Source of the DNA: Candidatus Wolfebacteria bacterium GW2011_GWE2_44_13
Lineage (GTDB): Bacteria > Patescibacteriota > Minisyncoccia > UBA6257 > UBA9933
Direction: 5' to 3'
DNA length: 64,000 bases
NCBI GenBank assembly: GCA_001000675.1
Contig: LCHW01000001.1
Coordinates: forward strand, 218,294-282,293
Shown here: piece by piece, positions 20,053 to 61,264 of the stretch
How positions within the stretch are numbered: position 1 is the stretch's first letter
How the letters are laid out: each line of letters starts with the position of its first letter
Made by a program: the position numbers and the translations under genes
The notes under the pieces: generated by a model
What the model was told of the DNA's origin: nothing
The model's database searches: none
Seen by the model: only the letters and a program-made list of their open reading frames with translations

Positions 20053-20055
20053 ACC

Positions 20056-27241: not shown

Positions 27242-29617
27242 ATGAATATATTTCTCATACTCCTTTCTATTGCCATTGCACTCCTTATTGTTATCGGTGT
27301 GCTGTATTTTTTTGTGCGACGAAAGGCGAATAGAGTGCGCATGCAACAAGCGCTTGATTTACACCTATTGTTGCTTCGCTTCCCGCGCATTCAGCGTGCT
27401 GATCAGGAAAAGAAGGACTTTAAAGATGAGATTAATCTTTCTGCGCAGTTGTACAGCACACTCCTTGGATTGAAAGTTCCGTTTGCGCTTGAAACTGCAG
27501 TACATCACGTGGGAGAAGAAATTCATTTTTATGTTGGCGTACCTAAGGGTGCGCTTGATCCAGTTCGTCGACAAATAGAGGGCTTGTTTAAAGATGTGCA
27601 AGTTGAGCCGGCTGACGATTACAATATATTTAATTCTACGGGTGTGAGTGCGGGTATGTATGTAAAACAGCATTATCCATACGCACTCCCTATCCGTACG
27701 TATCAAGAAGCGAATATCGATACATTCTCATCTATTCTCAGTGGATTTTCTAAGGTAAGTGAAATAGGTGAGGGAGCTGCATTGCAAGTTATCGTGCGCC
27801 CTGTTCCTGAATCTTCGAAAAAAACAGTGTTCAAAATGATTGGACAACTGCGACAAGGTGAAAAATTTGAGGACGTGCTTCGTGCTGATAGCGCATTGGG
27901 TGATATACAAAAAGCGCTCGTGGGTAAAAAAGAAGAAACCGTGGGAACTCCCGAGCAACCACGCACGGTGAATGAGGATGCCGTAAAGGCGCTCGAATCA
28001 AAGATTTCTAAGCCACTTGTATTTGCAAACGTGCGTGTTGTTACTTCTGCTATAAATACATTACAGGCAGAAGATATGTTAAGCGGTATTACGCATGGGT
28101 TTGCACAATTTGCCGCCCCTTTCCGACAAGAATTGCGCATTGCTAAGCCAAAACAATTACAAAAGTTTCTTCGGCAGTATTCGTTCCGCGAGTTTGACCA
28201 AGACACTGCTATTTGCTTGAACACAGAAGAAGTTGCGAGCTTATTTCATATGCCTACATCGTCACTCGAAGTTCCGCGTATTAAAATGTTGGAATCACGC
28301 GAATCGCCACCTCCAGAGAATTTGCCAAACGAGGGCACGCTTATCGGGGAGAGCTCTTTCCGTGGTGATGTGAAGAAAATATTTCTTACGCCACAAGACC
28401 GCATGCGCCATGTGTATGCCATTGGTCAAACGGGTACCGGTAAGTCTACCTTGCTTGTGCAGATGGCACTCGAAGATATTAAACAAGGCAAGGGTGTTTG
28501 TATTATCGATCCACACGGAGAGCTTGTTGATAAAACGCTGAGCCTCATCCCTGAACATCGCTATGATGATGTTATTGTGTTTGACCCAGCCGACATTGCA
28601 ACGCCGATGGGATTGAATATGCTCGAATACGATTTTAATAGACCTGAACAAAAGTCCTTTATTGTTGATGAGCTCTACAATATTATGGATAAGTTGTACG
28701 ACATGAAGACGTCGGGTGGTCCGATGTTTGAGTTGTATATGAAAAACGCTATTTTGTTGCTTATGGAAGATGCACGTAATGAGCCAGCAACAATCATGGA
28801 AATTCAACGGTTATTTACCGATGACGCGTTCCGTGAACGAAAGCTTGCGCGTATTCATAATCCTGTGGTTATTGATTTCTGGGAAAAGGAAGCTGCTAAA
28901 TCGACAGGAGAACATTCATTAGCAAACATGTCTTCCTATATTACGTCTAAGTTCAACGTGTTTACGACAAATGATTTTATGCGCCCGATTATCGGACAAA
29001 CGCAATCGTCGTTTAATTTTCGACAGGCAATGGATGAGGGGAAGATTTTGTTGGTGAGCTTGTCAAAAGGAAAAATCGGCGATTTTAACATGGGATTGCT
29101 TGGTATGATTATTGTTGGAAAAATATTGATGGCTGCATTGTCGCGTACGGATATTCCTGAGCATGAACGAAGGGAGTTTAATTTGTATCTTGACGAATTC
29201 CAAAATTTTTCTACGGATGCAATTTCTACGATATTTTCTGAAGCCCGTAAATATGCACTCAGCCTTACGGTTGCGCATCAATATGTAGGGCAGATGACAG
29301 ATAAGATAAAGGCGTCGGTGTTTGGTAACGTTGGATCAAAAATTATTCTTCGCGTTGGTATGGACGATGCAGAAGTGTTTGAAAAAGATCTTATGCCTAC
29401 GTTTACGAAAAATGATTTGGTAAACTTAAAAGCAGGACAGGCATATGCGAAGCCACTTATTAATGGGCAAGTAGTGCGGCCGTTTAACATACAGCTATTT
29501 AATGTGCAGTGGGGCGACCGAGGGCTTGTAGATAAATTGCGCGAGCTTTCTCGTTTGAAATATGGAAAGGATCGGGATAGTGTCGAGGGAGATATTTTGC
29601 GAAGATTACGATTATGA
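27242..29617 (+). CDS. TraD/TrwB/VirD4-like coupling-protein-type P-loop ATPase (T4SS DNA-transfer family) with an N-terminal TM anchor
   Basis: N-terminal TM. Walker A HVYAIGQTGTGKST, then GVCIIDPHGE and Walker B LYLDEFQNF. The 791-aa size fits. The exact subfamily is uncertain and HerA/FtsK-like alternatives are not excluded. Confidence 0.5.
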   Translation: MNIFLILLSIAIALLIVIGVLYFFVRRKANRVRMQQALDLHLLLLRFPRIQRADQEKKDFKDEINLSAQLYSTLLGLKVPFALETAVHHVGEEIHFYVGVPKGALDPVRRQIEGLFKDVQVEPADDYNIFNSTGVSAGMYVKQHYPYALPIRTYQEANIDTFSSILSGFSKVSEIGEGAALQVIVRPVPESSKKTVFKMIGQLRQGEKFEDVLRADSALGDIQKALVGKKEETVGTPEQPRTVNEDAVKALESKISKPLVFANVRVVTSAINTLQAEDMLSGITHGFAQFAAPFRQELRIAKPKQLQKFLRQYSFREFDQDTAICLNTEEVASLFHMPTSSLEVPRIKMLESRESPPPENLPNEGTLIGESSFRGDVKKIFLTPQDRMRHVYAIGQTGTGKSTLLVQMALEDIKQGKGVCIIDPHGELVDKTLSLIPEHRYDDVIVFDPADIATPMGLNMLEYDFNRPEQKSFIVDELYNIMDKLYDMKTSGGPMFELYMKNAILLLMEDARNEPATIMEIQRLFTDDAFRERKLARIHNPVVIDFWEKEAAKSTGEHSLANMSSYITSKFNVFTTNDFMRPIIGQTQSSFNFRQAMDEGKILLVSLSKGKIGDFNMGLLGMIIVGKILMAALSRTDIPEHERREFNLYLDEFQNFSTDAISTIFSEARKYALSLTVAHQYVGQMTDKIKASVFGNVGSKIILRVGMDDAEVFEKDLMPTFTKNDLVNLKAGQAYAKPLINGQVVRPFNIQLFNVQWGDRGLVDKLRELSRLKYGKDRDSVEGDILRRLRL

Positions 29618-29969: not shown

Positions 29970-30731
29970 TTATGCCTTTGCAATAACGAGTGCAAGGATT
30001 TGCTTTGCCCCTGCTCGTTTTAACGTACGTGCCGCTTCTGAGAGGGTTGCTCCTGAGGTTGAAACATCATCTATTAAGATGATGTTTTTATTACGAACAG
30101 CATCGGGGCGAGGAATTGCAAACGCGCCATGCATACGTGCAAAGCGTTCGGCATGCGTTTTTTCTTTTGCCTGCGGGTCGTTATTAATGCATTTAACCAG
30201 CAACTCATCGTATGGAAAATGCATGGCATGGGCAAATGCTTGTGCAATATACGCCGATTGATTAAATCCTCGTGTATGCTCCTTGCTTGTGTGTAGGGGG
30301 ATAGGGACGATGATTGGATTGGTAGTGAATATGCGAGGTTGCGGATCGAGCCCTTGCGCATACGTAATAAGAAGAAGCGAAAGCGTTTTTGTGAGGGCGT
30401 GTACTTTTTCGTATTTGCATTGATGAATACAACTACGGACAATGGGGTCGCTGTACTGTGCTGCTGCGCCAAGGAGATAGGGGAATTGAGCAGACAATTT
30501 TTCACTATGATTACAGGTGCGCTTGTTGTTTGCGATGCGCGCGGTACAAATAGGGCATATGAGCGCACTATTTTTAATAATCGCCTGATAACATGGTTTA
30601 CAAATTGGTTCGACTCCGGAATCGAGATATACTTCGCACTGTGCGCAGAGCGGAGGGAAAAGAATGTCGAGTGCGATGCGCGACATGCGTGTACTGAGCG
30701 AAAAGAGATGGTTTAATTTTCCATTTTTCAT
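29970..30731 (-). CDS. comFC: ComF family protein (ComFC-like phosphoribosyltransferase with a double zinc ribbon)
   Basis: N-terminal CxxC...CxxC zinc ribbons and a C-terminal PRTase motif NIILIDDVSTSGATL. The start may lie at 30731 or 30773. Confidence 0.7.
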   Translation of the reverse strand: MKNGKLNHLFSLSTRMSRIALDILFPPLCAQCEVYLDSGVEPICKPCYQAIIKNSALICPICTARIANNKRTCNHSEKLSAQFPYLLGAAAQYSDPIVRSCIHQCKYEKVHALTKTLSLLLITYAQGLDPQPRIFTTNPIIVPIPLHTSKEHTRGFNQSAYIAQAFAHAMHFPYDELLVKCINNDPQAKEKTHAERFARMHGAFAIPRPDAVRNKNIILIDDVSTSGATLSEAARTLKRAGAKQILALVIAKA

Positions 30732-30789
30732 GATTCTATAGTATAGTATATGATATAGCGTTTTAGAACGCATTTATTTTATTGTCATT

Positions 30790-31869
30790 ATGTTCGGAAT
30801 GAAATTATTCGGCTCATCTTCATATCTTGGTGTCGATATCGGCACGACATCTATTAAAATTGTTGAGATAGGGAAGGGGAGTTCCGGCCCGGAATTACAA
30901 AATTACGGTATTTTAGAGAGCTATGGGCACTTGGAGCGCGTGAATAACGCTATTCAAACGAGCTCGCTTAAAATTATGGAAGCGGATACAATCCAGCTTC
31001 TTAAGACACTTATTGCACGTTCGAATTTTAAATCAAAAGAAGTCATCGCTTCCATTCCCTCTTTTGCTGTTTTCATTACGTTATTTGAGATACCGCAAAT
31101 GAAAGATGCTGACATTGCTAAAGCAATGCAGTTTCAAATTGGGCAATATATTCCACTTCCTATTACCGAGGTTTCTATCGATTGGCTTAAAGTGGGTGAA
31201 CGTCAAGATGAGCAGGGCTTTGTGAAAGAGCAAATATTACTCGTTTCTATTCCAAATGAAACTGTTGATAAGTATCGACGTATTTTTTCTGCGGCTGGAT
31301 TGAATTTGCGAGCCATTGAAATAGAAAGCTTGTCGTTGTTGCGCGCTATTTCGGATGCATCAATGCCTCCAACGCTGATTGTGGATATTGGTTCGCGTTC
31401 AACAAACATTGCCGTCGTTGATAAGGGTAACTTGCGCTATAACTATCAGACTGATATGTCGAGTGCAGGTATTACGCAGGCGTTGGCAGGAGGGCTTGGG
31501 GTAAAAATTCGGCGTGCGGAAAAATTAAAACGAGAGCGCGGAATTCTTGGTGGCTCTGAATCGGAGCTATCCACATTGATGATACCGTTTGTTGATGCTA
31601 TACTTAATGAAGTAAAGCGTGCAAAAATAAAGTATGAACAAAGTTTCGGCAACGTCATTACGCAAGTTATTCTTGTGGGTGGTGGCGCGAAGATGCCGGG
31701 GATTGTTCCGTATGCGCAGGAGCAGCTTGGACTTCCGGTTATGATTAGTAATCCGTTTCTTAAAATACATTATCCTCCGTCAATTGAGCCTATTGTTCGG
31801 GATCTTGGCCCAACATTTGCTACTGCTATCGGTCTTGGAATTAAAGAATTTACGGACGGCTCTCTTTAA
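30790..31869 (+). CDS. pilM: type IV pilus assembly protein PilM
   Basis: Actin-like ATPase fold (LGVDIGTTSIKIVEI...). It leads the pilM-N-O series. Confidence 0.8.
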   Translation: MFGMKLFGSSSYLGVDIGTTSIKIVEIGKGSSGPELQNYGILESYGHLERVNNAIQTSSLKIMEADTIQLLKTLIARSNFKSKEVIASIPSFAVFITLFEIPQMKDADIAKAMQFQIGQYIPLPITEVSIDWLKVGERQDEQGFVKEQILLVSIPNETVDKYRRIFSAAGLNLRAIEIESLSLLRAISDASMPPTLIVDIGSRSTNIAVVDKGNLRYNYQTDMSSAGITQALAGGLGVKIRRAEKLKRERGILGGSESELSTLMIPFVDAILNEVKRAKIKYEQSFGNVITQVILVGGGAKMPGIVPYAQEQLGLPVMISNPFLKIHYPPSIEPIVRDLGPTFATAIGLGIKEFTDGSL

Positions 31870-31946
31870 ACGGAGTTGTAAGATCGTATCGCACAAAATA
31901 ATTTCGCCTACCATTTGTATTACATAGCTCTTATCTCTTAATTATT

Positions 31947-32495
31947 ATGCCTTATACACAATCAGCCCTACAAACTGAATTATCACGACAGCGCGAAGCT
32001 GCTGCCGGATGGCCTTGGCGATTAATGACCCTATCGGTTATCGTACTTCTTGCGGTGGTTGCCGTATATCTGGGTATGCGTTTTGGGTTTGAAGAGGCGT
32101 ATTTAAAAGGGGCTCTAGCCGATGAAGAAGCTACGTATGCAGCGACGTTTAAATCGGTAAGTCCTGAAGATCAAAAAAGGGTTTTCGATTTCTATTCTCA
32201 ACTCAGTAATATTGATACGCTGTTGAAAAAGCAGGGGAAGGTTACTCCGTACGCTGTAATTATTGAGCAAAATACGCTTAACGCAATTACATTCTCGAAT
32301 CTAGATATTAAAACAAGCGATACTGCTATTGTCGCGGTTATTGTCGGCAGAACGGCAACATACTCATCGATTGTGCAACAGTTAGGGTTGTTTAAAGCTG
32401 CTCCTGATGTTTCTGATGTAAAGCTGCTTGGTGCTCGGTTTGTTAATCCGACCGATGGCATTAATTTTTCTATCCAGATAACCTTTGATCGATAA
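31947..32495 (+). CDS. pilN: PilN-like type IV pilus assembly protein
   Basis: Single N-terminal TM plus a periplasmic domain. Its position after pilM fits. Confidence 0.5.
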   Translation: MPYTQSALQTELSRQREAAAGWPWRLMTLSVIVLLAVVAVYLGMRFGFEEAYLKGALADEEATYAATFKSVSPEDQKRVFDFYSQLSNIDTLLKKQGKVTPYAVIIEQNTLNAITFSNLDIKTSDTAIVAVIVGRTATYSSIVQQLGLFKAAPDVSDVKLLGARFVNPTDGINFSIQITFDR

Positions 32496-32501
32496 TCCCT
32501 T

Positions 32502-33086
32502 ATGAAATATCTCTCAAAACGATTTGCTAGCATCCTCCTTTCATTTGCTTTTTTTGCGGCGTCACTTGTTGTGTATGCCAATTTAATTCAGCCGACCTAC
32601 GATAACATTAAGGTGGAGCAGGGGAAGCTTATTGCTGCGCAGCAAAAAAATAGCGAATATACGAATGTTTTCACACGCTTAAAACAAGTTTCTACTAATT
32701 TCCAACAATCACCGGAATTACAAAATAGGGTCTCGATGGCATTTCCACTTGATGCGAACGTTTCAGATTCAATGAATCAAATTTCCGCAGTTGCTTTAGC
32801 GAATGGACTCACTATTGCATCAATTGATATTACGAGTGCTCCTGTTATTCCGACTGTTACTAAAAAAGCTGGCGACATTTCCTTTATAAAAGGAACAGGC
32901 GTTCTTAAGAATGCTATTGTTGTAGCAGGAACATACGAAGAAATAAAAGCATTTTTGCAAGGCGTTGAAACGGGTGTGCGTATCGCAAATATTAAGCTTG
33001 TGCGACTCACTCGATCTGCAAATCCGGCTACGCCGGAAATAATTAACGCAAGCGTCGAAATAGAAACCTATTATCAGGCTAAATAA
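32502..33086 (+). CDS. pilO: PilO-like type IV pilus assembly protein
   Basis: N-terminal TM, a coiled coil and a periplasmic domain. Its position after pilN fits. Confidence 0.5.
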   Translation: MKYLSKRFASILLSFAFFAASLVVYANLIQPTYDNIKVEQGKLIAAQQKNSEYTNVFTRLKQVSTNFQQSPELQNRVSMAFPLDANVSDSMNQISAVALANGLTIASIDITSAPVIPTVTKKAGDISFIKGTGVLKNAIVVAGTYEEIKAFLQGVETGVRIANIKLVRLTRSANPATPEIINASVEIETYYQAK

Positions 33087-33095
33087 CTATTACTT

Positions 33096-33389
33096 ATGGC
33101 AATTGTACTTGAAGGAGAAAAAAAGAATATTGATTGGAGTTTTGCGCTCGGGACAGTGGTTGTAGTTGGTATCGTTGGAGCCTCTATAATCTATTTGTTT
33201 TTTGTGAGCCCAGAAACAGTGCAACAACTCACGACTCCTGAGCAACGCACGTTGAGCGAGTTTTCAAAAACTTCTTTTAAGCCTGAAGAAATTTTAAATA
33301 GTGCTGCGTTTCAGGAACTGCGAACTGTGGCGCCGCTTACGAGCCCGACGGAAGAGGAGGTGGGGAAAATAAACCCTTTCCTTCCTTAA
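33096..33389 (+). CDS. small single-TM protein, possibly a PilP-like accessory component
   Basis: 97 aa with one TM helix. It sits last in the pilMNO sub-cluster. Confidence 0.35.
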   Translation: MAIVLEGEKKNIDWSFALGTVVVVGIVGASIIYLFFVSPETVQQLTTPEQRTLSEFSKTSFKPEEILNSAAFQELRTVAPLTSPTEEEVGKINPFLP

Positions 33390-33417
33390 AATTTTCTACG
33401 GCTGGTGCACTCCTTCG

Positions 33418-33498
33418 TTGTGGGCCCCCATTACCTCGGTCGAAGCACTATCGTGCATCTTCCTCGCTAATGCTCCCACGTCTTGTATTGCACTCAAG
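33418..33498 (+). promoter_or_regulatory. Conserved 5' element E2, upstream of pilB
   Basis: A paralogous copy of 27123-27203, with identical 39-bp spacing to the start codon. Confidence 0.55.
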
Positions 33499-33536
33499 CG
33501 TAAAAAATTTCTCAACTTTATTTTCGAACGAACTTT

Positions 33537-35276
33537 ATGGACAACAAAACACTCATTGACGCATTAATTCAAGATGGGCTCCTCGGAGAAATCGAAGGGC
33601 GTAAGGTGCTGCAAGAAGCGGCGCTTGCGCGTCGGCAAGTAGATGAGTTGATTTACGAACAGCGTTTAGTTGATGAAGAACAGCTTGCCATGGAAAAGGG
33701 CAAGCTTTTGAATGTGCCCTATCGAAAAATAGATCCACAAGAAATTCTCGATGATACGCTTAAACTGTTCCCAGAAGAAACAGTGCGTAACTATAAAGTT
33801 ATTCCGATCAGTATTAAGGATGACATGTTAGTGGTGGGGATGATTAACCCAGATGATGCACAGGCCCAGGAGGCGCTTAAATTTATTGCAAAGCAGCGTC
33901 GATTAAATTTGGGAGCATATATTATTACTCAAGCATTGTGGGAGCTTGTTTTACGTCGTTATTCTCCGTATCGAAGTCTTATTGACGAAGCGGTGAAGGC
34001 GAGCACATCACTTGCATCGAAAAATACTGGACCAACACAAGTTGTGCGGCTCGAAGAAAATAAGGGAGCAAGTGCTGACGAAACGCCTATTATCCGTATT
34101 GTATCGACCACACTTAAAGAGGCAGTTTGGGAAAAGGCTTCGGATATCCACATAGAACCACAACGCAATCGTGGGCGTATTCGCTTTCGTATTGACGGTG
34201 AGTTGCGGGAAGTTTCTTCGTTTCCGCTTGTTCTGCACGCATCGATTGTTTCTCGTATTAAAATTCTTGCGAACTTAAAGATAGACGAAACGCGTATTCC
34301 GCAAGACGGACGTTTTCGAACCGTGCTCTTTGGGCGCGATATCGATTATCGTGTTGCTACGTTTCCAACTCCTGTAGGGGAGAAGGTTGTTATCCGTGTG
34401 CTTGACCCATCGACTGGTTTGAAAGGCCTTGAAGATCTTGGATTACGCGGTAAAAATTTACAAACCGTAAAAACAGGGATTGAAAAACCATACGGCGTTA
34501 TTTTGATTACTGGTCCTACGGGATCTGGAAAAAGTACGACACTGTATGCATTGATGCAATTGCTAAATAAAGAAGACATTAACATTGTTAGTCTTGAAGA
34601 TCCAGTTGAATATTACATGGATGGATTAAACCAATCGCAGGTAAAGCCTGAAATCGGATATGACTTCGCCTCTGGTTTGCGACAAATTCTTCGACAAGAT
34701 CCAGATGTTATCATGGTAGGAGAAATCCGCGATGAAGAAACTGCGGGGCTTACTATCCAGGCTGCGTTAACCGGACATATTGTGCTTTCCACATTACACA
34801 CGAACAATTCGGTTGGCGTTATTCCGCGTCTTATGGATATGAAGGTACAGCCGTTTCTTATTCCTGCAGCACTTAACATTATGCTTGCACAGCGATTAAT
34901 AACGCGTTTGTGCCAACAATGCCGTGTGAGTGACGTTGCGTCGCCACAAGTTACAGAAGTTATTAGCCGTGAACTCGCACAGCTATCTCCAGAAATTCGC
35001 AGTGCGTATCCTGCTCAAGGACCCTATTCAGTATTCCATTCTCCAGGATGTGAAGCGTGTAAGGGGAAAGGAGTTTCAGGGCGCCTCGCAGTATTTGAGG
35101 TTATGATCATGACTCCTGAATTGGAAAAGGTTATCAATGAAGGCGCAACCGAAGCCTCGATTCTTGCGGAAGCTCGCCGACAAGGTATGGTTACGATGCA
35201 CCAAGACGGTATTCTTAAGGCGCTTGAAGGTTTGGTTTCAATTGAAGAAGTTTTGCGAGAGACCGTTGAAATGTGA
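33537..35276 (+). CDS. pilB: type IV pilus assembly ATPase PilB (GspE family)
   Basis: N-terminal GSPII_E_N domain, Walker A GPTGSGKST, Asp/His boxes and the tetracysteine motif CxxC...CxxC. Confidence 0.85.
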   Translation: MDNKTLIDALIQDGLLGEIEGRKVLQEAALARRQVDELIYEQRLVDEEQLAMEKGKLLNVPYRKIDPQEILDDTLKLFPEETVRNYKVIPISIKDDMLVVGMINPDDAQAQEALKFIAKQRRLNLGAYIITQALWELVLRRYSPYRSLIDEAVKASTSLASKNTGPTQVVRLEENKGASADETPIIRIVSTTLKEAVWEKASDIHIEPQRNRGRIRFRIDGELREVSSFPLVLHASIVSRIKILANLKIDETRIPQDGRFRTVLFGRDIDYRVATFPTPVGEKVVIRVLDPSTGLKGLEDLGLRGKNLQTVKTGIEKPYGVILITGPTGSGKSTTLYALMQLLNKEDINIVSLEDPVEYYMDGLNQSQVKPEIGYDFASGLRQILRQDPDVIMVGEIRDEETAGLTIQAALTGHIVLSTLHTNNSVGVIPRLMDMKVQPFLIPAALNIMLAQRLITRLCQQCRVSDVASPQVTEVISRELAQLSPEIRSAYPAQGPYSVFHSPGCEACKGKGVSGRLAVFEVMIMTPELEKVINEGATEASILAEARRQGMVTMHQDGILKALEGLVSIEEVLRETVEM

Positions 35277-35362
35277 TAGAATGCATGTAATAGATTCCGT
35301 GTGGCACGATACAATATTTCGTTTAGGCCCATGCGACAATACACAATACATATATTATTTTT

Positions 35363-36436
35363 ATGGATTACAAACAACAGCTAAACGATTTACTTCTCGC
35401 TACCGCAAAACAAAATGCTTCCGATCTTCATATTGGTGTTGGTAAATATCCAATGCTTCGTATTGATGGATTGTTGATTCCGCTCCAAAAAGATGGAGTG
35501 GTTACTCCTGAAGCTGCAACTGGCTTAATTACTGAATTGCTAACGCCACAGCAACTTGAAGTTGTTGATAAAAATCGAGAAATAGATTTTTCGTATACCT
35601 ACGAAGATAAGGCGCGATTTCGTGTAAACGTTTTTTACCAACGGGGTTTTATGGCTGCTGCGTTGCGCTTGATTCCTGCGGATGCGCGAACTATTGAAGA
35701 TCTTGGCTTGCCACCTATTTTGCATGATTTCACGAAACTGTCACAAGGGTTTGTGTTAGTGGTAGGACCTGCAGGACATGGAAAATCTACGACACTCGCT
35801 GCGCTTATTGATGAAATCAACCATGCGCGCACGGAGCATATTATTACTATCGAAGATCCTGTTGAGTATATGTTTGTGCAGGATAAATCAATTGTTTCTC
35901 AACGTGAAGTTTTGAGTGACACGCCCGATTTTCATACCGCGCTGAAGTCGCTACTTCGACAAGATCCTGACGTTGTTATGATTGGAGAAATGCGCGATAA
36001 AGAATCTATTGCCATTGCTATGACTGCGGCAGAAACAGGACATCTTGTATTTTCTACATTACACACAAACTCCGCAGCACAAACCATCGACCGTATCATT
36101 GATAGTTTCCCGCCTGATCAACAGAGCCAAGTTGCTTCACAGTTAGCCGCTACGTTAGTAGGTATTGTTTCGCAGCGATTAGTTCCACGTGTTGATGGAG
36201 GACGCGTTCCTGCGTGTGAAATCATGATTGTGAACTCAGCTATCCGGAACCTTATTCGCGAGCGAAAGGCGTATCAGATCGACCTTGTCATCGAAACCTC
36301 TATGCAGGAAGGTATGACAACCTTAAACAGGGCGCTTTCTACATTGGTGCGTAGTAGGCAGATAGCACTGGAAGAAGCCGAACTATACTCATTGAATGCA
36401 AGTGAGTTGCGCATACTTATCGAGCGTGTAACGTGA
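35363..36436 (+). CDS. pilT: twitching-motility/retraction ATPase PilT
   Basis: About 357 aa, lacking the N-terminal GSPII_E_N extension. Walker A GPAGHGKST and the PilT His box. Confidence 0.85.
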   Translation: MDYKQQLNDLLLATAKQNASDLHIGVGKYPMLRIDGLLIPLQKDGVVTPEAATGLITELLTPQQLEVVDKNREIDFSYTYEDKARFRVNVFYQRGFMAAALRLIPADARTIEDLGLPPILHDFTKLSQGFVLVVGPAGHGKSTTLAALIDEINHARTEHIITIEDPVEYMFVQDKSIVSQREVLSDTPDFHTALKSLLRQDPDVVMIGEMRDKESIAIAMTAAETGHLVFSTLHTNSAAQTIDRIIDSFPPDQQSQVASQLAATLVGIVSQRLVPRVDGGRVPACEIMIVNSAIRNLIRERKAYQIDLVIETSMQEGMTTLNRALSTLVRSRQIALEEAELYSLNASELRILIERVT

Positions 36437-36557
36437 GAAAGCTCGTAAGCTCGTAAGAAAAGAAGCTTGTAAGCAAATACAGACAGAGGTGGCGCGCCGC
36501 GTACTTCACTCACTGCATGCGTTTTACAGGAGGGAATTTAGTTGGAAAATCATACTC

Positions 36558-37769
36558 ATGAAATTTAAATACCAAGCAAGAAATAAAGACGGGGAACTGC
36601 AGGTTGGGTTCGTCGAGTCATATTCGCAAAACGGTGCGGCGGATGTTTTGGTATCACATGGCCTATATGTATTGAGTCTCGAAAATGAATCAAAGGATAA
36701 TTTCTTTGATAAGTTTTTGGCCATGTTTAAGCATGTTTCGTTGACCGATCTCATGATCTTTACGCGACAATTTGCAACGCTTATGGAGGCAAAGGTTTCC
36801 CTTGGAGACTCTATGAAAAATCTCCAAAAGCAAACGCGTAGTGCGATGATGAAAGAGGTAATTTATGAAATCGGTACGGATGTTGATAGCGGCTTGTCGT
36901 TATCGCAGGCACTTGAGCGACAAAAAGACGTTTTTTCTGAATTCTATGTCAGCATGATTCGATCCGCGGAAATAACAGGCCGGCTCGAAGAGGCTATTAT
37001 TTATCTTGCCGAATATATTGAAAAGCAGAAGCTGTGGCGTTCCCGCATTATCAACGCATTGATTTATCCGGCAATTCTTGTGGCCATGTTTCTTGGTATT
37101 GTGGTACTTATGGTCACAATGATCTTGCCGAATATTAAGCCAATCTTAATAGAAGCGGGTGATCTTCCTTGGTACACCGATGTGGTGCTTAACGGAGGTG
37201 ATTTTATTATTGCGTGGTGGTGGATTGCTATTATTGTTATCATTCCTGCAGTCATGTTTTTTCTTGAATATATCCGCAGTGATGAGGGAAAGGTTGTTGT
37301 TGATGAGGTGTTGTTGCGAACGCCGGTGTTTGGGTCGCTTTTTTCAAAAATGTATATCGCACGCTTTGCGGAGTCGCTCGGCATTCTTGTGAAGGGCGGT
37401 ATTCCTATTGCGCAAGCACTCGAAATTACGTCGCGTTCAATTGGGAGTAGCGTGTTTCAAGATATTCTCCATGATGTAAGTGATCGAGTTCGAGGAGGAG
37501 AGCTGCTTTCTGCTGCTCTTGAACGCTATGAGTACTATTTCCCTTCGCTGGTGAGTCAGATGATTGCTATTGGTGAAACAACAGGGCGACTTGAAGAATT
37601 GTTAGGACGTATTGCTATTTTCTATACCCGTGACGTTGATGATATGATGAGTCGGCTTGGTGAGTTGGTGCAGCCACTTATCATCGCAATCATTGGTGTG
37701 TTTGTTGGGTTCTTGTTTGCTTCTATCCTTGTTCCGATATATAATTTAGTTAAGTCGTTTGGCGGATAG
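36558..37769 (+). CDS. pilC: type IV pilus platform protein PilC (GspF family)
   Basis: Two T2SSF repeats with three TM segments. Start at MKFKYQ. Confidence 0.8.
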   Translation: MKFKYQARNKDGELQVGFVESYSQNGAADVLVSHGLYVLSLENESKDNFFDKFLAMFKHVSLTDLMIFTRQFATLMEAKVSLGDSMKNLQKQTRSAMMKEVIYEIGTDVDSGLSLSQALERQKDVFSEFYVSMIRSAEITGRLEEAIIYLAEYIEKQKLWRSRIINALIYPAILVAMFLGIVVLMVTMILPNIKPILIEAGDLPWYTDVVLNGGDFIIAWWWIAIIVIIPAVMFFLEYIRSDEGKVVVDEVLLRTPVFGSLFSKMYIARFAESLGILVKGGIPIAQALEITSRSIGSSVFQDILHDVSDRVRGGELLSAALERYEYYFPSLVSQMIAIGETTGRLEELLGRIAIFYTRDVDDMMSRLGELVQPLIIAIIGVFVGFLFASILVPIYNLVKSFGG

Positions 37770-37818
37770 TCCAAATGTATTTAATAGATATATTTAAAAT
37801 TAAAAAAAATAATCGTTT

Positions 37819-38268
37819 ATGAAATCACAGCTTTCTCAAAAAGGCAGCGCCTTGAGCCTGTCGAAAGGTTTTACACTCGTCGAAATGTTGATCGTTATTG
37901 CGATCATCGCAATTCTCGCATCTGTTTCTTTGGTCAGCGTTAGTGGCGTGCGTCAGTCTGCTCGCGATACAAAGCGTGTGTCCGATATCAACAAGATTCA
38001 GCAACAGCTTGAAGTATACTATTCACGAACTGGGAAGTATCCAACTGCTATCACTGATATTGAGGATTTTATTAATACAAAAGATCCGATTGGGGAATTA
38101 TATGAATATAGTGTTTATAATGGCGATCAGAGCTATGTCGTCGGTATTATGTTGGAAGGGGGAAGCTCGGCAACTGAAGAATCGAACGAAATAGACACTC
38201 TTCCTTCTGGAGCTGCACTTAGTAGTGTAGATTGTAACAATACCCTTGGTTTCTGCGTTGGTAACTAA
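37819..38268 (+). CDS. pilA: type IV pilin (major pilin candidate) with a class III prepilin signal
   Basis: The leader ends KG|FTLVEMLIVIAIIAILA (N-methylation motif with Glu5). Confidence 0.7.
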   Translation: MKSQLSQKGSALSLSKGFTLVEMLIVIAIIAILASVSLVSVSGVRQSARDTKRVSDINKIQQQLEVYYSRTGKYPTAITDIEDFINTKDPIGELYEYSVYNGDQSYVVGIMLEGGSSATEESNEIDTLPSGAALSSVDCNNTLGFCVGN

Positions 38269-38285
38269 TATTTATTTTATATACC

Positions 38286-39188
38286 GTGGATTACTTCCTG
38301 TATCTTTGTTTAGCCGTTTTCGGCCTAATCTTTGGAAGCTTTCTCAACGTTGTAACTATTCGATATAACCCCGACAAGGGGTTTTCGAATATTTATTCCT
38401 TGGGCGGGCGCTCCCATTGCCCTCATTGTCACAAGCAACTTACGTGGTACGAGCTTGTGCCTGTTTTTAGTTTTCTCTTTTTACTTGGCAAGTGTCGCCA
38501 TTGTGGGCATCGTATATCGTTTCAATATCCTGTTGTTGAATTATTGACATCGGCAATTTTTGTTACTGTTCCTTTATACGTTGCACATTTTTCGCGTATG
38601 TTTTTCTGGAGCGCTGATCTTTCGTACGGCTCATGGTTATTTTCCGCGCTCGCTGCCCTGTGGACGGCTGTGTTTGTACTATTTCTTATTCTCGCAGTCA
38701 TTGATTTGAAGCACATGATTATTCCTGATTCGATTAATATTGCGTTGGCATTTATTGGAGTCGCTATTGCCGGAGTAACACAATGGCTACATGGATTCGA
38801 TGCTATTCACGGATCATTTTTGCGTCATTACGCAATGATTTTCGGGTTGCGTGAATCTATTTGGACGAACCATCTATTCGCTGCATGTATTGGACTCCTA
38901 TTTTTTGGAAGTATTATCGTGTTGAGTAAAGGGCGTGCTATGGGGTGGGGCGATTTTAAATTAGCGGGTGCACTGGGCCTTATCTTTGGGTGGCCAGATA
39001 TCGTGCTTGTCCTAATGTTCTCGTTTATTATTGGCTCGATTATTTCTATTGGTCTTATGTTGCGTGGTCGCAAGACCATGAAAGATGCGGTTCCGTTTGG
39101 GCCGTTTTTGGTGTTAGGGGCAATAACTGTTTTTTTCTTTGGATTTCAATTGATGTCCCTATATTTTGACCTGTTCGGTGTGGTATAA
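38286..39188 (+). CDS. pilD: prepilin peptidase PilD (A24 family)
   Basis: N-terminal tetracysteine Zn motif (CPHC...CRHC) and a DiS_P_DiS peptidase core with the catalytic Asp residues. Confidence 0.8.
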   Translation: MDYFLYLCLAVFGLIFGSFLNVVTIRYNPDKGFSNIYSLGGRSHCPHCHKQLTWYELVPVFSFLFLLGKCRHCGHRISFQYPVVELLTSAIFVTVPLYVAHFSRMFFWSADLSYGSWLFSALAALWTAVFVLFLILAVIDLKHMIIPDSINIALAFIGVAIAGVTQWLHGFDAIHGSFLRHYAMIFGLRESIWTNHLFAACIGLLFFGSIIVLSKGRAMGWGDFKLAGALGLIFGWPDIVLVLMFSFIIGSIISIGLMLRGRKTMKDAVPFGPFLVLGAITVFFFGFQLMSLYFDLFGVV

Positions 39189-39195
39189 TGGATGC

Positions 39196-39780
39196 ATGGT
39201 ATTATTCGTCAAGCAATATATTCGAAAGAGAAAATCTCACAGCGATGGGGGGTTTACGCTTATCGAGATGACGATTGTAATTGGCCTTGTTGTGACACTA
39301 TCTATAGCCGCTACTGTTTTTAATAAATCAATTGCGCAACAAATTCTTGTTTCGCGAGAGCATGCAAAGGTAGTCGCTTTTTTTGTTCGAGCACGTTCTG
39401 CCGGACTTACAATTCCTAAAACTGATACTACCATTGAGCTTGTTTGTGCGTATGGTGTGCATATTGATGCCGCAACGCGCGCGATAACATTATTTAAAGA
39501 TTTAGGTACGCTTGGCGGAGCATGTGATTCAGCGGATCATCTATATACGATGGATGCCGAAAAAATAGACCAGACTATTTTAGACCCATTGGTATCTGTA
39601 ACGGCTAGCAATATTACAAATATCGTATTTATCCCTCCTTTTGGTGACGTTATTATTTCTGACGGAGGATTAGAGTATAGTTCGGCTACGGTTACGGTTT
39701 CGGGTGTTGTAACAAATCTTTCTCGTGGCGTGAAAGTAAATACGTTTGGGCAAATTACTGAATTTACACCGATACCATGA
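39196..39780 (+). CDS. minor pilin/pseudopilin with a prepilin signal
   Basis: Signal ...DGG|FTLIEMTIV. ATG at 39196. Confidence 0.55.
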   Translation: MVLFVKQYIRKRKSHSDGGFTLIEMTIVIGLVVTLSIAATVFNKSIAQQILVSREHAKVVAFFVRARSAGLTIPKTDTTIELVCAYGVHIDAATRAITLFKDLGTLGGACDSADHLYTMDAEKIDQTILDPLVSVTASNITNIVFIPPFGDVIISDGGLEYSSATVTVSGVVTNLSRGVKVNTFGQITEFTPIP

Positions 39781-40283
39781 AGCAACGACATATTAAAAAA
39801 ACAAGCGGATTTTTGCTTATCGAAGCCATGGTTGCTATGAGTGTGCTACTCACGAGCGTAATGGGTGTTTTTATATTAATGTCACAATCAATTAAACTGA
39901 CGCGCACCTTGAACGATCAATATGTCGCAACGTATCTTGCGGGAGAAGGAATTGAGATTGCAAAGAATATTCTTGATGCAAGCGTTGTTGCTGACCCTGC
40001 GGCATGGAATGTTAACAATAACTTTCATCAGAATGGATGTTATGCGCTTGATTATGCTAGTAATGTGCTTGCCGATTCGTGCTCGGATATGCCACTGAGC
40101 TTTAATGGAACGAACTACGGATACTCGGTTGGGGGAGAAACGAGTTCGTTTGTGCGAAAAGTTAACCTTGCCTTAGTTATGGACGGCTCTACGCAAATAG
40201 GTGTTCGGGTAACGTCTACTGTTACGTGGGCAGGAGGAACGCGAACATTTGCACTGGAAGATGTATTTTATGCATGGCTCTAA
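39777..40283 (+). CDS. minor pilin/pseudopilin (PilV-like)
   Basis: Signal ...TSG|FLLIEAMVAM. Its start overlaps the previous stop by 4 bp. Confidence 0.55.
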   Translation: MKQRHIKKTSGFLLIEAMVAMSVLLTSVMGVFILMSQSIKLTRTLNDQYVATYLAGEGIEIAKNILDASVVADPAAWNVNNNFHQNGCYALDYASNVLADSCSDMPLSFNGTNYGYSVGGETSSFVRKVNLALVMDGSTQIGVRVTSTVTWAGGTRTFALEDVFYAWL

Positions 40284-40288
40284 TTGAT

Positions 40289-40954
40289 ATGAACAGCAAT
40301 AAAAACAAACAATTACATACCGTGCGTAGGGAGGGCTTTACGCTCGTAGAGATGATTGTTGCCTTTGGCATCTTTACTATTTTTATCACGGTCGCCGCAG
40401 GAAGTTTTGTGCGGTCGGTGCGCATTCAGCGTGTATCGTTGCAGCTTATGGCTATTAACGACAACATGGCAATTACGATGGAACAAATGATGCGTGAGAT
40501 GCGTGTCGGGTATAATTTTTGTACGGCAGAGTCTATCCCTAATACGCTAAGCGCAACTGTGCAATCGCAATGTGCTTTCATGATCCCCGGGCAGGAAATT
40601 CAATTTTTTAAAAAGGGCGATGTTCCTGTTCGGTATCGAAGAACTGCATCAGGGAGTATTCAAAAAGGTGTTGGAGTAGCGGAGGACGAGCCAATTGATG
40701 TATGTGCGGAAGGAGAGTCTGTCGACGGAATTTGTTACCGAACGATTACCGCAGAAAATACCGATGTTATGGGGGCTAATTTTCAAGTATTGCATAATGA
40801 TGTTGAGATTGGATTGCTGTATCCGCCCCGTATTGTATTAAGCTTTTCAATTACAAGTACTGACCCATTAGTAAAAACAATGACTTCCCCAATCACTATC
40901 CAAACGACAATTAGTGCGCGTTGCGGAAAGCAATCGTGTCCTGCGGATAACTAA
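40289..40954 (+). CDS. minor pilin/pseudopilin (PilW-like)
   Basis: Signal ...REG|FTLVEMIVAFG. ATG at 40289. Confidence 0.55.
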   Translation: MNSNKNKQLHTVRREGFTLVEMIVAFGIFTIFITVAAGSFVRSVRIQRVSLQLMAINDNMAITMEQMMREMRVGYNFCTAESIPNTLSATVQSQCAFMIPGQEIQFFKKGDVPVRYRRTASGSIQKGVGVAEDEPIDVCAEGESVDGICYRTITAENTDVMGANFQVLHNDVEIGLLYPPRIVLSFSITSTDPLVKTMTSPITIQTTISARCGKQSCPADN

Positions 40955-40979
40955 ATGACAGATATAGTAATGCGTAACC

Positions 40980-41384
40980 ATGAAATTATCCCACTCAAAA
41001 TTTAAGAATCAGCGAGGACAGGCTATGATTTTGACCGTGCTCGTACTTTCGAGTATTGTGCTTTCTCTCTCTGCTATTGGCGGCTATTTAATGATGGTTC
41101 GATTACGAGTAAGTACTGATATCGGCAACACGATGCGCGCAATTTATATTGCAGATGCGGGGCTTGGATGCGAAGCATACAATCATTTTAAAAATGCGGA
41201 TGCTCCCGGGTTTTGCGCTCCTGGCACTGAACGAAATACATTTACGTTTGACGGAACGGTTGCGGATGCACCAAGCTTTTATCACGAAACAGAAACAATT
41301 TCTGCTGGTGTAGATTCCCGTATCAACGCAAAAGGGTATGCACGAACAGCAAGTCGCTCGTTACATCTCGAGTTCGGGTTTTAA
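40980..41384 (+). CDS. PilX-like minor pilin
   Basis: PilX N-terminal-like segment QRGQAMILTVLVLSSIVLSL. Confidence 0.45.
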   Translation: MKLSHSKFKNQRGQAMILTVLVLSSIVLSLSAIGGYLMMVRLRVSTDIGNTMRAIYIADAGLGCEAYNHFKNADAPGFCAPGTERNTFTFDGTVADAPSFYHETETISAGVDSRINAKGYARTASRSLHLEFGF

Positions 41385-53130: not shown

Positions 53131-53193
53131 TACAAAAATACAGCACAAAGATAAGCATCCATATTTTAAGAGGAAGGTTGAGCTCCTTCGTGT

Positions 53194-53219
53194 GTCATTC
53201 CGGCGGAGGCCGGAATCCA
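53194..53219. repeat. Small palindromic repeat unit, copy 4b
   Basis: gtcattccggcggaggccggaatcca. With 4a it brackets a 63-bp AT-rich spacer. A partial unit also occurs at 53521-53535. Confidence 0.6.
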
Positions 53220-59007: not shown

Positions 59008-59739
59008 ATGGATATCAAGAAGAAAACAGTTTTTATTACTGGTGCCGCATCGGGTATCGGACTGGAGACTGCTAAAAAATTTATACAAGAAGGCGCAAAC
59101 GTAACCATCTATTCTCGGGGAACCAATAAAATTCCCGAAGATGCATTCCCGGCTGATCGCGTATTAATTTGCGAAGGAGATGTGTGTGACCGAGATGCTG
59201 TGGGACGATCGGTAAATGCAACAATGAAAAAGTTTGGCTCGCTCGATGTTCTTATTAATAATGCGGGCGTTGCACAGAGAAAGCGATTTGAAGATATGCT
59301 CGAAGAGGAATGGAACAAGATGCTCAATGTGAATTTGTGTGGAATGTTCATCGTTACGCAGGAAGCACTTAAGGCTATGGTTACAGGAGCTCCAGAGCGC
59401 CACCATGATGGGTGTATTGTTAACCATAAATGCATCATTAATATTTCATCGGGAGCTGGGCTGTTCGGCATCCCCGAACTTTCGATTTATTCAGCAACAA
59501 AAGGTGCTATCATCGCCTTCACGCAGGCGTTGTCAGGCGAGTTGGTCCAGTCGGGGATTGAGGTTATTGCCGTTACCCCAGGGTCTGTCGGGACTGACAT
59601 GTTCAAGGACTTGTTTAAGGGAAAGGAAGCCCACCACACCCCCGCAGATGTCGCTGAGGTGCTCTACAAGACGGCCATTGGGGAAATGAAGCCCGATAGT
59701 CGCCTAATCGTCGACACGTTCTATCACGAGCGGGTTTGA
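59008..59739 (+). CDS. SDR-family oxidoreductase (short-chain dehydrogenase/reductase)
   Basis: TGAASGIG cofactor motif, NNAG, and the catalytic S...YSATK. Confidence 0.8.
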   Translation: MDIKKKTVFITGAASGIGLETAKKFIQEGANVTIYSRGTNKIPEDAFPADRVLICEGDVCDRDAVGRSVNATMKKFGSLDVLINNAGVAQRKRFEDMLEEEWNKMLNVNLCGMFIVTQEALKAMVTGAPERHHDGCIVNHKCIINISSGAGLFGIPELSIYSATKGAIIAFTQALSGELVQSGIEVIAVTPGSVGTDMFKDLFKGKEAHHTPADVAEVLYKTAIGEMKPDSRLIVDTFYHERV

Positions 59740-59740
59740 A
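59698..59740 (+). repeat. 43-bp perfect direct repeat, copy 1 (3' end of the SDR gene)
   Basis: agtcgcctaatcgtcgacacgttctatcacgagcgggtttgaa. It is identical to 60221-60263. Confidence 0.8.
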
Positions 59741-60230
59741 AAGGAACAATATGAAAAACGAAATTGAACGAAAATTTTTTGTTAAGGAAATGACAGATCT
59801 TTCCGGCGCGCAGCCCCTTCATTATGAGCGTTATTTTCTGGATCGTGGGAATGGAAAAGAAGTTAGAATTTCTAAAATAAACGATTCATATATTTATGAA
59901 GAAAAATCTGAGTTATCCGAGTTAGAACGAACCCGCGATAAAAAAGAAATAACAAAAGAAGAATTTTATAAATTGAAGGAAAATGCTTCTGAGGGTCTTA
60001 TCCGTGACCGCTATAGCTTTTCTTCGAACCCCGATATTGTTATTCAGGTGTATCATGGGCGGTTTGAAGGGCTAGTTTGCGCTGAAGTTGAATTTGATTC
60101 TGCGGAAGCTGCAAACGCATTTTCTCCGTTGTCTTGGATGGGTAGAGAAATGACTGGGTTGCCAATTGCACGTGATGCTCGACTTATTGAGTTGAGTAGC
60201 GAAGAATTTAAAAAATATTTAGTCGCCTAA
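59736..60230 (+). CDS. CYTH-domain protein (triphosphate tunnel metalloenzyme / class IV adenylate cyclase-like)
   Basis: N-terminal EIERKF (ExExK) motif and a CYTH-sized 164 aa. The gene is bracketed by the 43-bp direct repeats. Confidence 0.6.
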   Translation: MKRNNMKNEIERKFFVKEMTDLSGAQPLHYERYFLDRGNGKEVRISKINDSYIYEEKSELSELERTRDKKEITKEEFYKLKENASEGLIRDRYSFSSNPDIVIQVYHGRFEGLVCAEVEFDSAEAANAFSPLSWMGREMTGLPIARDARLIELSSEEFKKYLVA

Positions 60231-60263
60231 TCGTCGACACGTTCTATCACGAGCGGGTTTGAA
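60221..60263 (+). repeat. 43-bp perfect direct repeat, copy 2 (3' end of the CYTH gene)
   Basis: Identical to 59698-59740. It retains a ghost of the SDR C-terminal reading frame (SRLIVDTFYHERV*). Confidence 0.8.
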
Positions 60264-60265: not shown

Positions 60266-60727
60266 ATGAATAAAACTGCGTTTGTAAAAATATCGGGGGA
60301 TTTGATTTCTCGTGAAGATGTTCTCGATTGGATTCGTGTTCTTACGCAGGATTATTTTGTGGTTGTTTGTTCTGGTGGCGGTACGCAAATTAACAAAGCA
60401 TTTGAAGAACGAGGAATCCCCGTGGTATTCGGTCCACTTGGCAGGGAGATTGAACGGTTTGAGGATCGTCAGTTTGCGCGCGAAATTTTGGAAAAGAATC
60501 AGGCGGAAATTCAAGATCTATTACAGGCAAAACAGATACAAGCGACTGTTGTAATTCCCGTACTCGATATTGGTTCTGTACTATGCCATATAAACGGGGA
60601 TGTCTATGTATTGGCGGCATATCTTGGATTTGATGCATTGTACGTACTCACCTTGGAAGATCGAGTTGCGAAAAAGACAGAGGAATTTAAAATGTATCCG
60701 AAGGTAACGGTAGTGGGGTTTGACTAA
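60266..60727 (+). CDS. amino-acid-kinase-fold (AAK) protein, short form
   Basis: N-terminal KISGDL...VVVCSGGG, typical of the carbamate/uridylate/isopentenyl-phosphate kinase fold. At 153 aa it is atypically short. Confidence 0.45.
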   Translation: MNKTAFVKISGDLISREDVLDWIRVLTQDYFVVVCSGGGTQINKAFEERGIPVVFGPLGREIERFEDRQFAREILEKNQAEIQDLLQAKQIQATVVIPVLDIGSVLCHINGDVYVLAAYLGFDALYVLTLEDRVAKKTEEFKMYPKVTVVGFD

Positions 60728-60793
60728 TAGATAATTACTGTGCCATAGTGTCGGCAGCTGCTTATTTAAAATCCCTAAAAGAAGGAGGTCGGT

Positions 60794-61216
60794 ATGCACG
60801 TTTTTGCACATCCGTTGACCCAGTGCCTTGTGTGCGCTGTGGGGTTTGGGATCTGGCCGATATTGCGGCAGTATTATGGGCTGCCTGTTGGCTTGGCGAT
60901 GAGTATCATGAGTGTGGTGCAGTTTTTTGTAGTACTCGGGTTCTCTAATTTTTCTCCAGCTCCGTTGGTGCAGGGCACTGTTCTGTTTGTGCTGTTCGGA
61001 GCTATTCCGAGCGGAGTTGCCATCTTTTGCTACGGGCTATTGCTTGACCAGGGAAAGGGTGTTGTCACGACATGGCTTCCTGTAATGGCGGTAATGGTCC
61101 CCATTGTTATGGTAATTGGCGGCGTGCTGTTGCTCGGCGAAACGATGACCATGCAAAAAATAATAGGAGTTGGTGTCGCGTGCTACAGCATTTACTTGTT
61201 GAGTACCTCCCCGTAA
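60794..61216 (+). CDS. EamA-like small membrane protein (DMT superfamily)
   Basis: Four TM helices and EamA-like at 140 aa. Confidence 0.45.
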   Translation: MHVFAHPLTQCLVCAVGFGIWPILRQYYGLPVGLAMSIMSVVQFFVVLGFSNFSPAPLVQGTVLFVLFGAIPSGVAIFCYGLLLDQGKGVVTTWLPVMAVMVPIVMVIGGVLLLGETMTMQKIIGVGVACYSIYLLSTSP

Positions 61217-61225: not shown

Positions 61226-61264
61226 AAATAAAAACGCCTCGACTTCGGTCGAGGCGTTATTTTT
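61226..61264. terminator. Bidirectional intrinsic terminator
   Basis: AACGCCTCGAC-ttcg-GTCGAGGCGTT flanked by A and T runs. Confidence 0.65.

Follow-up and report, generated by a model that had tools for sequence, protein, structure and literature searches.

A 44-nt direct repeat derived from the 3′ end of an SDR gene bounds variable gene modules in a Candidatus Wolfebacteria locus

Introduction

The cag island of Helicobacter pylori is bracketed by a 31-bp duplicate of the 3′ end of glr, and the target duplications of transposons and insertion sequences (IS) are typically 2–14 bp long. For RecA-dependent exchange the minimum usually quoted is about 25–30 nt in Escherichia coli. The subject of the present study is R, a perfect 44-nt direct repeat in a 64,000-nt stretch of DNA from Candidatus Wolfebacteria (candidate phyla radiation (CPR), or Patescibacteria; from the Rifle aquifer according to the source names), hereafter called the window. 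R copies the end of a short-chain dehydrogenase (SDR) gene and recurs behind the gene that follows it. The locus acts like a miniature cassette array, in which repeat-bounded gene modules are placed at the 3′ end of a gene.

Two described systems offer a comparison. In the tycheposon islands located at tRNA genes of Prochlorococcus, successive integrations are separated by partial copies of the target (10.1101/2020.12.28.424599). In the minimal mobile elements described from Neisseria (Saunders and Snyder 2002; Snyder 2007, cited in PMC3787668), close relatives have different genes at the same site between conserved flanks. Their exchange is attributed to transformation followed by homologous recombination in the flanking genes, and they carry no mobility gene.

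The genomes of CPR bacteria are tiny and contain few mobile elements that can be recognised, and no genetic system is available for these organisms. The gain, loss and shuffling of their accessory genes are accordingly poorly understood. The locus described here is a concrete, sequence-level case of gene-content variation organised by a short repeat that is derived from a neighbouring gene.

The repeat and the genes that it bounds

The features of the locus that carry the argument are as follows, in window coordinates.

59008..59739, + strand: SDR gene, 243 aa; Pfam adh_short, E = 8e-52; conserved anchor of the array
59697..59740, + strand: R1, native copy of the repeat; SDR codons 231–243 (the last 13), TGA stop and 1 nt
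59741..59750, + strand: leader of the CYTH module, 10 nt; AAGGA ribosome-binding motif, read from sequence
59751..60230, + strand: CYTH/TTM gene, 159 aa; R2 contains the final two codons and the TAA stop
60220..60263, + strand: R2, identical second copy of the repeat; CYTH stop and CYTH-kinase spacer
60266..60727, + strand: amino-acid-kinase-like gene, 153 aa; Pfam AA_kinase, E = 1e-5, N-terminal part only

R1 (59697–59740) and R2 (60220–60263) are perfect direct repeats of 44 nt with a spacing of 523 nt. A first-pass annotation of the window had reported perfect 43-bp repeats on either side of the CYTH gene. Their presence is confirmed by at least five independent assemblies; the 43-mer occurs exactly twice in the window (59698–59740 and 60221–60263), though the identity runs one base further to the left. 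No match to the 43-mer was obtained in 100 shuffles, even when up to 3 mismatches were allowed, and R is the sole long perfect direct repeat within the 64-kb window.

The last 40–44 nt of the SDR gene are the source of R. The C-terminus of the SDR protein (..RLIVDTFYHxRV) is retained by 24 homologs, the most distant of them about 47% identical, and this family-wide conservation identifies R1 as the native copy and R2 as the duplicate. The annotation had taken the repeat to form the 3′ ends of both genes. At the SDR gene R comprises 13 codons, the TGA stop and 1 nt. At the CYTH gene only the first 11 nt of R2 are coding (GTC GCC TAA, that is V, A and the stop of CYTH), and the other 33 nt make up the whole CYTH-kinase spacer apart from the 2 nt that immediately precede the kinase ATG (60266). 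The TAA stop of CYTH is generated from the SDR codons CTA ATC read in the +1 frame. The frame of the SDR peptide in R2 is +1 relative to CYTH and belongs to no plausible open reading frame (ORF).

The 479 nt between R1 and R2 contain just the 10-nt leader, with one strain-specific mismatch at 59744, and the CYTH ORF; the kinase module is likewise free of integrase and excisionase genes. Folding of R with its flanks as single-stranded DNA was not significant (z = −0.13), with no significant hairpin or dyad. R has no Rfam family, the only two matches, both sub-threshold, lying elsewhere in the region, and no terminator-like site was found at R. An RNA element or a terminator within R was rejected on these grounds. 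A programmed frameshift that would add the SDR tail to the CYTH protein was also considered, as an A-run (TTTAAAAAATAT) lies just before R2 in the window; it was rejected since L079, one of the relatives described below, has no slippery run there.

The arrangement SDR-R1-CYTH-R2-kinase is 100% identical over 2.2 kb in at least five assemblies made from different samples with different assemblers. These are a MEGAHIT k127 contig of 541 kb, two JGI assemblies, the 2012 AMFJ01 assembly and a 601-nt contig (L012) from another sample. The Logan contigs (k=31) end within the repeat; a genuine repeat of 44 nt, being longer than k, should have this effect. The possibility that L012 is an excised or repeat-to-repeat molecule was rejected, since its start precedes the first allele-specific position in CYTH by exactly 127 nt, which is the k of the assembly. 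This offset identifies L012 as the arm of a strain bubble, and thus both CYTH alleles coexist in one sample.

Gene layouts and junctions in relatives

The locus was compared with those of relatives, denoted by locus numbers. The taxon sample is small: a search of metagenome contigs with the SDR protein gave two useful relatives, and the search of genome contigs missed the window's own species. The SDR gene sits after rplK in all relatives. The interval from SDR to scpA differs in gene content among these loci, with at least seven variants. In the layouts below, (R) is the copy at the SDR end and r a remnant.

Window: SDR(R)-CYTH-R-kinase-r-EamA
L015: SDR(R)-kinase-R-NUDIX-r-EamA
L083: SDR(R)-NUDIX-kinase-R-EamA
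L078–80: SDR(R)-CYTH-R-EamA
L081: SDR(R)-kinase
L084: SDR(R)-EamA
L022: SDR-CYTH, then unrelated genes, with no R2
L023: SDR, scpA

Gene order is permuted as well, from kinase-R-NUDIX in L015 to NUDIX-kinase-R in L083. The CYTH gene is absent from L015–17 (SDR 83% identical to that of the window) and L081 (72%), where SDR is joined to kinase through one R. The SDR-kinase junction of these loci reads ..CGGGTTTGA, then 3 nt and ATG, which is the layout of the R2-kinase junction of the window. The annotation had anticipated that deletion of CYTH would leave an intact SDR-kinase junction, and had pointed to relatives in which CYTH might be absent and the repeat single; both are seen in L015–17 and L081. 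CYTH thus behaves as a dispensable module of one gene with R at its borders, and recombination between R1 and R2 would give exactly the layout of these relatives.

The two copies are also present in the sister strains (L013, L014 and L018–20, including GCA_000993695.1 and GCA_003508115.1), which are 97% identical to the window; R2 of L018–20 has a single C>T change. In L078, L079 and L080 the order SDR-R-CYTH-R is found with the same left boundary of R2, at −44/−45 from the SDR stop, although their CYTH and SDR are only 78–81% and 71–78% identical to those of the window. The CYTH stop in these three loci is TGA, from SDR codons CTG ATC read in +1; the window has CTA ATC in both copies, which yields TAA. 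R is also found behind the kinase gene in L015 and L082/83 (..GGA TTT CCC GCC TGA TCGTGGACACGTTCTATCATCA..), where it again provides the stop and the boundary lies 41–42 nt before the end of R.

Three kinds of junction recur downstream of R. The R-to-kinase junction consists of the stop, 3 nt and ATG in the window, L015 and L081. The R-to-NUDIX junction is ..CAAAGGGTTTAA with 5–6 nt and ATG in L015 and L083. At the R-to-EamA junction of L078–80, L082/83 and L084, ..GTTTGAC is followed after about 17–21 nt by CATAGT..CAGTT..GGAGG..ATG. A scan for R (up to 11 mismatches in 40) of the window and all loci fetched until then placed it at the ends of SDR genes and immediately behind CYTH or kinase genes and nowhere else, with 0 matches expected by chance.

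None of the 52 species-representative Patescibacteria loci anchored on a kinase homolog had SDR or CYTH within 3.5 kb. A widely conserved CYTH-kinase or SDR-kinase pair was rejected on this count (0/52), and the linkage is therefore specific to this Wolfebacteria subclade.

Some of the loci deserve comment. At 1–128 of L083 the stored gene call has a 38-aa reverse ORF; the + strand here encodes an SDR C-terminus (..DNRMIVDTFYHQRV*) that was missed by the gene caller, and the locus is therefore read as given above. In L078 a purine-rich spacer of about 100 nt with AAGGAAAAAG-type motifs (958–1059) lies between the SDR stop and the CYTH start, due to which the CYTH call is stretched to 176 aa. 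L022 and L023 have in common a different SDR stop and downstream sequence (TAAGGGnAGTnAnATGGA, 3733–3757 in both), unlike the ..GGTTTGA of the lineages with R arrays.

Concerted evolution of the repeat copies

The number of mismatches between R1 and R2 in the 40-nt core was determined for each genome.

Window: 0
L018: 1
L080: 2
L079: 3
L015: 4
L078: 9
L083: 11

Between genomes, R copies differ by a mean of 8.4/40. When R2 was permuted among five genomes, the sum of within-genome R1/R2 mismatches was as low in only 4 of the 120 permutations. The window-specific codon changes of the SDR gene (AAC>AGT, CTG>CTA, GTG>GTC, CAT>CAC and CAG>GAG) are all found in R2 too, and numerous private changes of L080 are common to both its R copies. 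Most within-genome R1/R2 differences (20/28) are synonymous, or stop-to-stop, in the SDR frame as against about 21% for random changes; no synonymous bias of these differences is seen in the other two frames. The non-coding copies of R carry the imprint of coding selection on the SDR gene. The within-genome likeness and the synonymous bias, taken together, are suggestive rather than conclusive of gene conversion from the coding copies.

Divergence of CYTH between lineages (75–81% protein and about 70–75% nucleotide identity) is similar to that of SDR, kinase and ScpA. Since CYTH is as diverged as its neighbour genes, the module appears to be long resident, and a common mobile source of recent date is unlikely. 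Over such a time a non-coding R2 left to drift freely should have become very different from R1. The perfect identity of R1 and R2 would thus be due to concerted evolution and not to youth. The annotation had set against its own proposal, an insertion, the case in which both copies are universal and have diverged independently. Both copies proved to be widespread; their divergence ranges from concerted (0–4 mismatches) to independent (9–11).

A mosaic allele of the CYTH gene

The CYTH gene itself contains a tract that sets the window apart from its sister strains.

59793..60143, + strand: divergent block in CYTH; 56 mismatches in 351 nt (16%) against L013, L014 and L018–20

The flanking genes of the window and the sister strains differ by 0.1–0.7%, and 56 of the 66 differences in the 2.2-kb operon lie in this block. 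Of the codons that differ over the whole CYTH gene, 37 are synonymous and 15 non-synonymous. No difference is seen in the first 42 nt of CYTH, in its last 76 nt or in either repeat. The block is best read, from this pattern, as a mosaic allele acquired from a moderately diverged relative through homologous recombination, and attests to recombination at this locus. Genes for a type IV pilus and DNA uptake are present at about 29970–41000 of the window (ComF-like, PilM, PilO, PilB, PilT-like, PilC, prepilin peptidase and pilin-like), which makes the uptake of DNA plausible.

Other genes of the array and other repeats of the window

The remaining features of the array lie at and beyond the end of the kinase gene.

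60716..60724, + strand: GGGTTTGAC, probable remnant of a third copy of R
60720..60749, + strand: promoter-like site, TTGACT-18-CATAGT, TG-extended; the −35 overlaps the R-end remnant; consensus match only
60794..61216, + strand: gene of an EamA-like small membrane protein; usual last member of the array
61233–61258: bidirectional terminator common to the EamA-like gene and the convergent scpA

The kinase of the window ends in ..GFD*, and its closest relatives end in ..GF[PS]A* fused to a full R. The third copy (R3) was probably lost through a deletion between GGnTTT, in the G-F codons of the kinase, and GGTTT, at the end of R, with GGGTTTGAC left behind. The motif ..GTTTGAC, about 17–21 nt, CATAGT..CAGTT..GGAGG..ATG is found upstream of the EamA-like gene in every relative read, and also in the window and L015, where only the end of R remains.

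The CYTH protein, a triphosphate-tunnel (TTM) protein, has an N-terminal EIERKF motif (EXEXK). No Pfam match was obtained at E ≤ 0.01; its family profile matches PDB entries 2FBL (NE1496) and 3TYP with E of about 1e-13, and its homologs are named CYTH or adenylate cyclase in their sources. With 30%, the GC content at third codon positions (GC3) of CYTH is the lowest in the operon. The EamA-like gene has the highest GC3 (59%, CYTH 30%), and its protein is 33–68% identical among relatives (L015, L078–80, L082 and L084) as against about 70–90% for the neighbours. The array is preceded by gyrB, secE, nusG and rplK and followed by scpA and ykuD/M23.

Three further repeats were observed in the window. 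A 28-nt GC-rich palindromic repeat, TTGTCATTCCCGCG(C/G)AGGCGGGAATCCA, has four copies (775–802, 1891–1918, 23220–23247 and 53192–53219) and may be terminator-like or similar to repetitive extragenic palindromes (REP-like). A 95-nt repeat (27108–27202 and 33402–33496, 86% identical) lies just upstream of two ATPase genes, VirD4/HerA-like (27242–29617) and PilB-like (33537–35276), and may be a shared leader, promoter or small RNA. The copies of a 50-nt repeat (20051–20100 and 20119–20168) are 88% identical and 68 nt apart.

Discussion

We consider it fairly probable that R is the unit of an old, repeat-punctuated variable gene array of a Wolfebacteria subclade, that its copies are homogenised by conversion, and that recombination removes and shuffles the modules between them. 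The general form of such an array would be SDR(R), then any number of units of accessory gene and R, a promoter-like spacer, the EamA-like gene and the convergent scpA, and the window would represent SDR(R1)-CYTH-R2-kinase-(R3 remnant)-EamA. Each R would be a copy of the last 40–45 nt of the SDR gene. The accessory ORFs (CYTH and kinase-like) would run a few nt into the next R and take their stop, T(G/A)A, from SDR CT(G/A) ATC in the +1 frame. The duplications presumably predate the split of these lineages.

Close copies of R would be kept alike by non-reciprocal homologous recombination, i.e. gene conversion, the donor being either the coding copy, which is under selection, or SDR ends acquired from relatives. 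Copies that have drifted too far, as in L078 and L083, would no longer be converted and would decay. Reciprocal or unequal recombination between R copies, together with deletions by microhomology at R ends, could delete or re-order single-gene modules, and whole modules and alleles may also pass between related strains by homologous recombination in the flanks. A regulatory role of parts of R, as −35 box, stops and translation-initiation context, may add to its retention.

Several points weigh against this account. The statistics of concerted evolution come from only 5–7 genomes, and L078 (9 mismatches) and L083 (11) are without homogenisation. Pairwise identities among the lineages are star-like and thus give neither the direction of gain or loss nor the ancestral layout. 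The left boundaries of R after CYTH (−44/−45) and after kinase (−41/−42) nearly coincide, being about 3 nt apart, and the right boundary is always the SDR stop. Such near-identical boundaries are not expected from two independent illegitimate duplications; a site-specific process or strong selection for an R-borne stop fits them better. Selection of this kind could narrow the left boundary, as an early stop occurs only in the +1 frame of R. The origin of the first gene-R units is left unexplained by the account.

These boundaries, near-identical for two unrelated genes and fixed on the right at the SDR stop, are the main argument for a different explanation, in which R is an attachment (att)-like site of a trans-acting site-specific recombinase and cassettes of leader, ORF and R are excised as circles and inserted at the SDR-proximal R. 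It predicts tandem cassettes separated by partial copies of the 3′ end of the target gene. The cassettes are indeed minimal, with ORFs that start 3–11 nt past one R and end inside the next; their order is permuted between L015 and L083, GC3 varies between modules, and about 40 nt is the att length quoted as typical for integrative elements; tycheposons provide a documented case of successive integrations with partial target copies between them (10.1101/2020.12.28.424599). We nevertheless think such a recombinase unlikely. No recombinase domain, Phage_integrase included, was detected in the scan of 30 of the 33 ORFs of at least 180 aa or in the genes flanking the array. R shows no significant hairpin or dyad and, by eye, neither GTTRRRY/RYYYAAC cores nor dif-like arms. 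Exchange at a fixed point would have no homogenising effect, so that gene conversion would still be needed, and the cassette genes, as diverged between lineages as host genes, give no sign of recent mobility. The viral contigs contain neither R nor a close CYTH relative. A phage vehicle was rejected on the same evidence: R has no match on viral contigs, and the CYTH relatives there are only 24–28% identical.

A broader version of this idea is that R arrays constitute an undescribed integron-like cassette system of CPR bacteria. In such a system the 3′ end of a conserved gene adjacent to housekeeping genes would serve as the recombination site, stop-less minimal ORFs would be captured, ordered and expressed, and the exchange would be carried out by a host recombinase in trans or by RecA on a site of about 40 nt. 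We regard this as doubtful.

Alternatively, R could be kept as a functional cis element, acting in translation initiation or coupling, in RNA processing or as a −35 box, with its likeness to SDR held by selection and not by conversion. The end of R (GTTTGAC) does overlap a promoter-like −35 before the EamA-like gene in every lineage read, and persists where the rest of R is gone; R supplies the stops of CYTH and kinase, and the kinase ATG lies 3 nt past the end of R in three lineages. Selection on a site would not, however, yield shared lineage-specific substitutions that are synonymous in SDR. R has no Rfam match and no significant fold, and it has been lost without loss of the neighbour gene in the window (R3), L081 and L022. 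A cis role can be added to conversion but cannot replace it, and as a full explanation it seems to us distinctly improbable.

The annotation had proposed that CYTH was recently inserted, or is amplifying, between SDR and kinase in this strain; a fresh 44-nt target duplication would then account for the perfect identity of the copies, for the CYTH-less relatives with a single copy at the SDR-kinase junction and for the lowest GC3 being that of CYTH. We abandon this proposal as very improbable. The same duplication with the same boundary is found in the 97% identical sister group and in the three lineages L078–80 with about 20–30% protein divergence, the repeat also lies behind the kinase gene in L015 and L082/83, and the divergence of CYTH between lineages matches that of the flanking genes. 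Moreover, 44 nt is far above the target duplications of transposases, and terminal inverted repeats are absent.

An assembly artefact, whether through collapse or duplication of a repeat or through the chimeric joining of two strains, is given practically no credence: the DNA is of metagenome origin and two CYTH alleles occur together in the same samples, but the structure is the same across samples, years and assemblers, including assemblies at k=127/141, where k exceeds the repeat length, and is shared by diverged relatives.

These observations carry a caution, namely that perfect identity of flanking repeats does not date an insertion. Concerted evolution on a tract of 40–44 nt can be put to the test at this locus, which may also serve as a natural recombination marker for uncultivated populations. 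If a dedicated recombinase is involved, it would represent a new cassette-capture system; if none is, ordinary homologous recombination on very short repeats would suffice for integron-like modularity.

Comparison with known systems

Two classes of element can be set aside. A transposon or IS target duplication was rejected in view of the 44-nt length, the lack of inverted termini and the lack of a transposase in the insert. A diversity-generating retroelement was rejected as there is no reverse transcriptase among the neighbour genes and the R1/R2 differences in relatives are C/T, A/G and G/T, not confined to A.

Like integron arrays, and the sedentary chromosomal ones especially, the locus has promoterless single-ORF cassettes that are each bounded by a repeat and vary in content and order (window, L015, L078–80, L081, L083 and L084). 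In both systems ORFs may end inside the site, and repeats are more alike within than between genomes. The differences are that R is a coding fragment of 40–44 nt in direct orientation and that the arrays are tiny, with 0–2 cassettes. No integron integrase gene (intI) was found beside the insertion site, either among gyrB, secE, nusG, rplK, scpA and ykuD/M23 or in the 30 scanned ORFs. R has no attC features: it starts with ..AACCGCC and ends with ..GGTTTGA, neither of which is a core, and it does not fold into a bulged hairpin. An integron in the strict sense was therefore rejected.

Integrative elements leave direct repeats of the target 3′ end with the target intact, and this is the arrangement here, R1 being the intact SDR end and R2 lying beyond the insert. 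Empty sites with a single R exist as well, leading to kinase in L015–17 and L081 and to EamA in L084. No integrase or excisionase, or remnant of one, is present within the CYTH or kinase module. As in tycheposon-type arrays, a target 3′ end of about 40 nt is duplicated beyond each unit, the target stays intact and degraded remnants are seen. Unlike in those arrays, the units are single ORFs of about 0.5 kb without a mobility gene, and the target is the protein-coding SDR gene, not a tRNA gene. Further differences from them are that the repeat lends the ORFs their stop codon, that its copies undergo concerted evolution and that the cargo is as old as the host genes.

The descriptive definition of the Neisseria minimal mobile element, as quoted in PMC3787668, applies to this locus: content varies between conserved flanks, here SDR and scpA, without mobility genes. 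The present locus also contains the apparently imported mosaic CYTH allele and competence-type pilus genes. The Neisseria elements are not known to be punctuated by internal direct repeats; here a repeat derived from one flank separates the modules and offers internal points of recombination.

Concerted evolution of short intragenomic repeats provides the remaining parallel, since identity is higher within than between genomes and the non-coding copy tracks the selected coding copy. The tract of 40–44 nt is unusually short for it, not far above the minimum usually quoted for RecA-dependent exchange, and the host is a CPR bacterium with unstudied recombination biology. What is unusual at this locus is that the repeat is a protein-coding fragment, that it supplies the stops of the modules, and that a repeat of 40–44 nt evolves in concert in a CPR bacterium.

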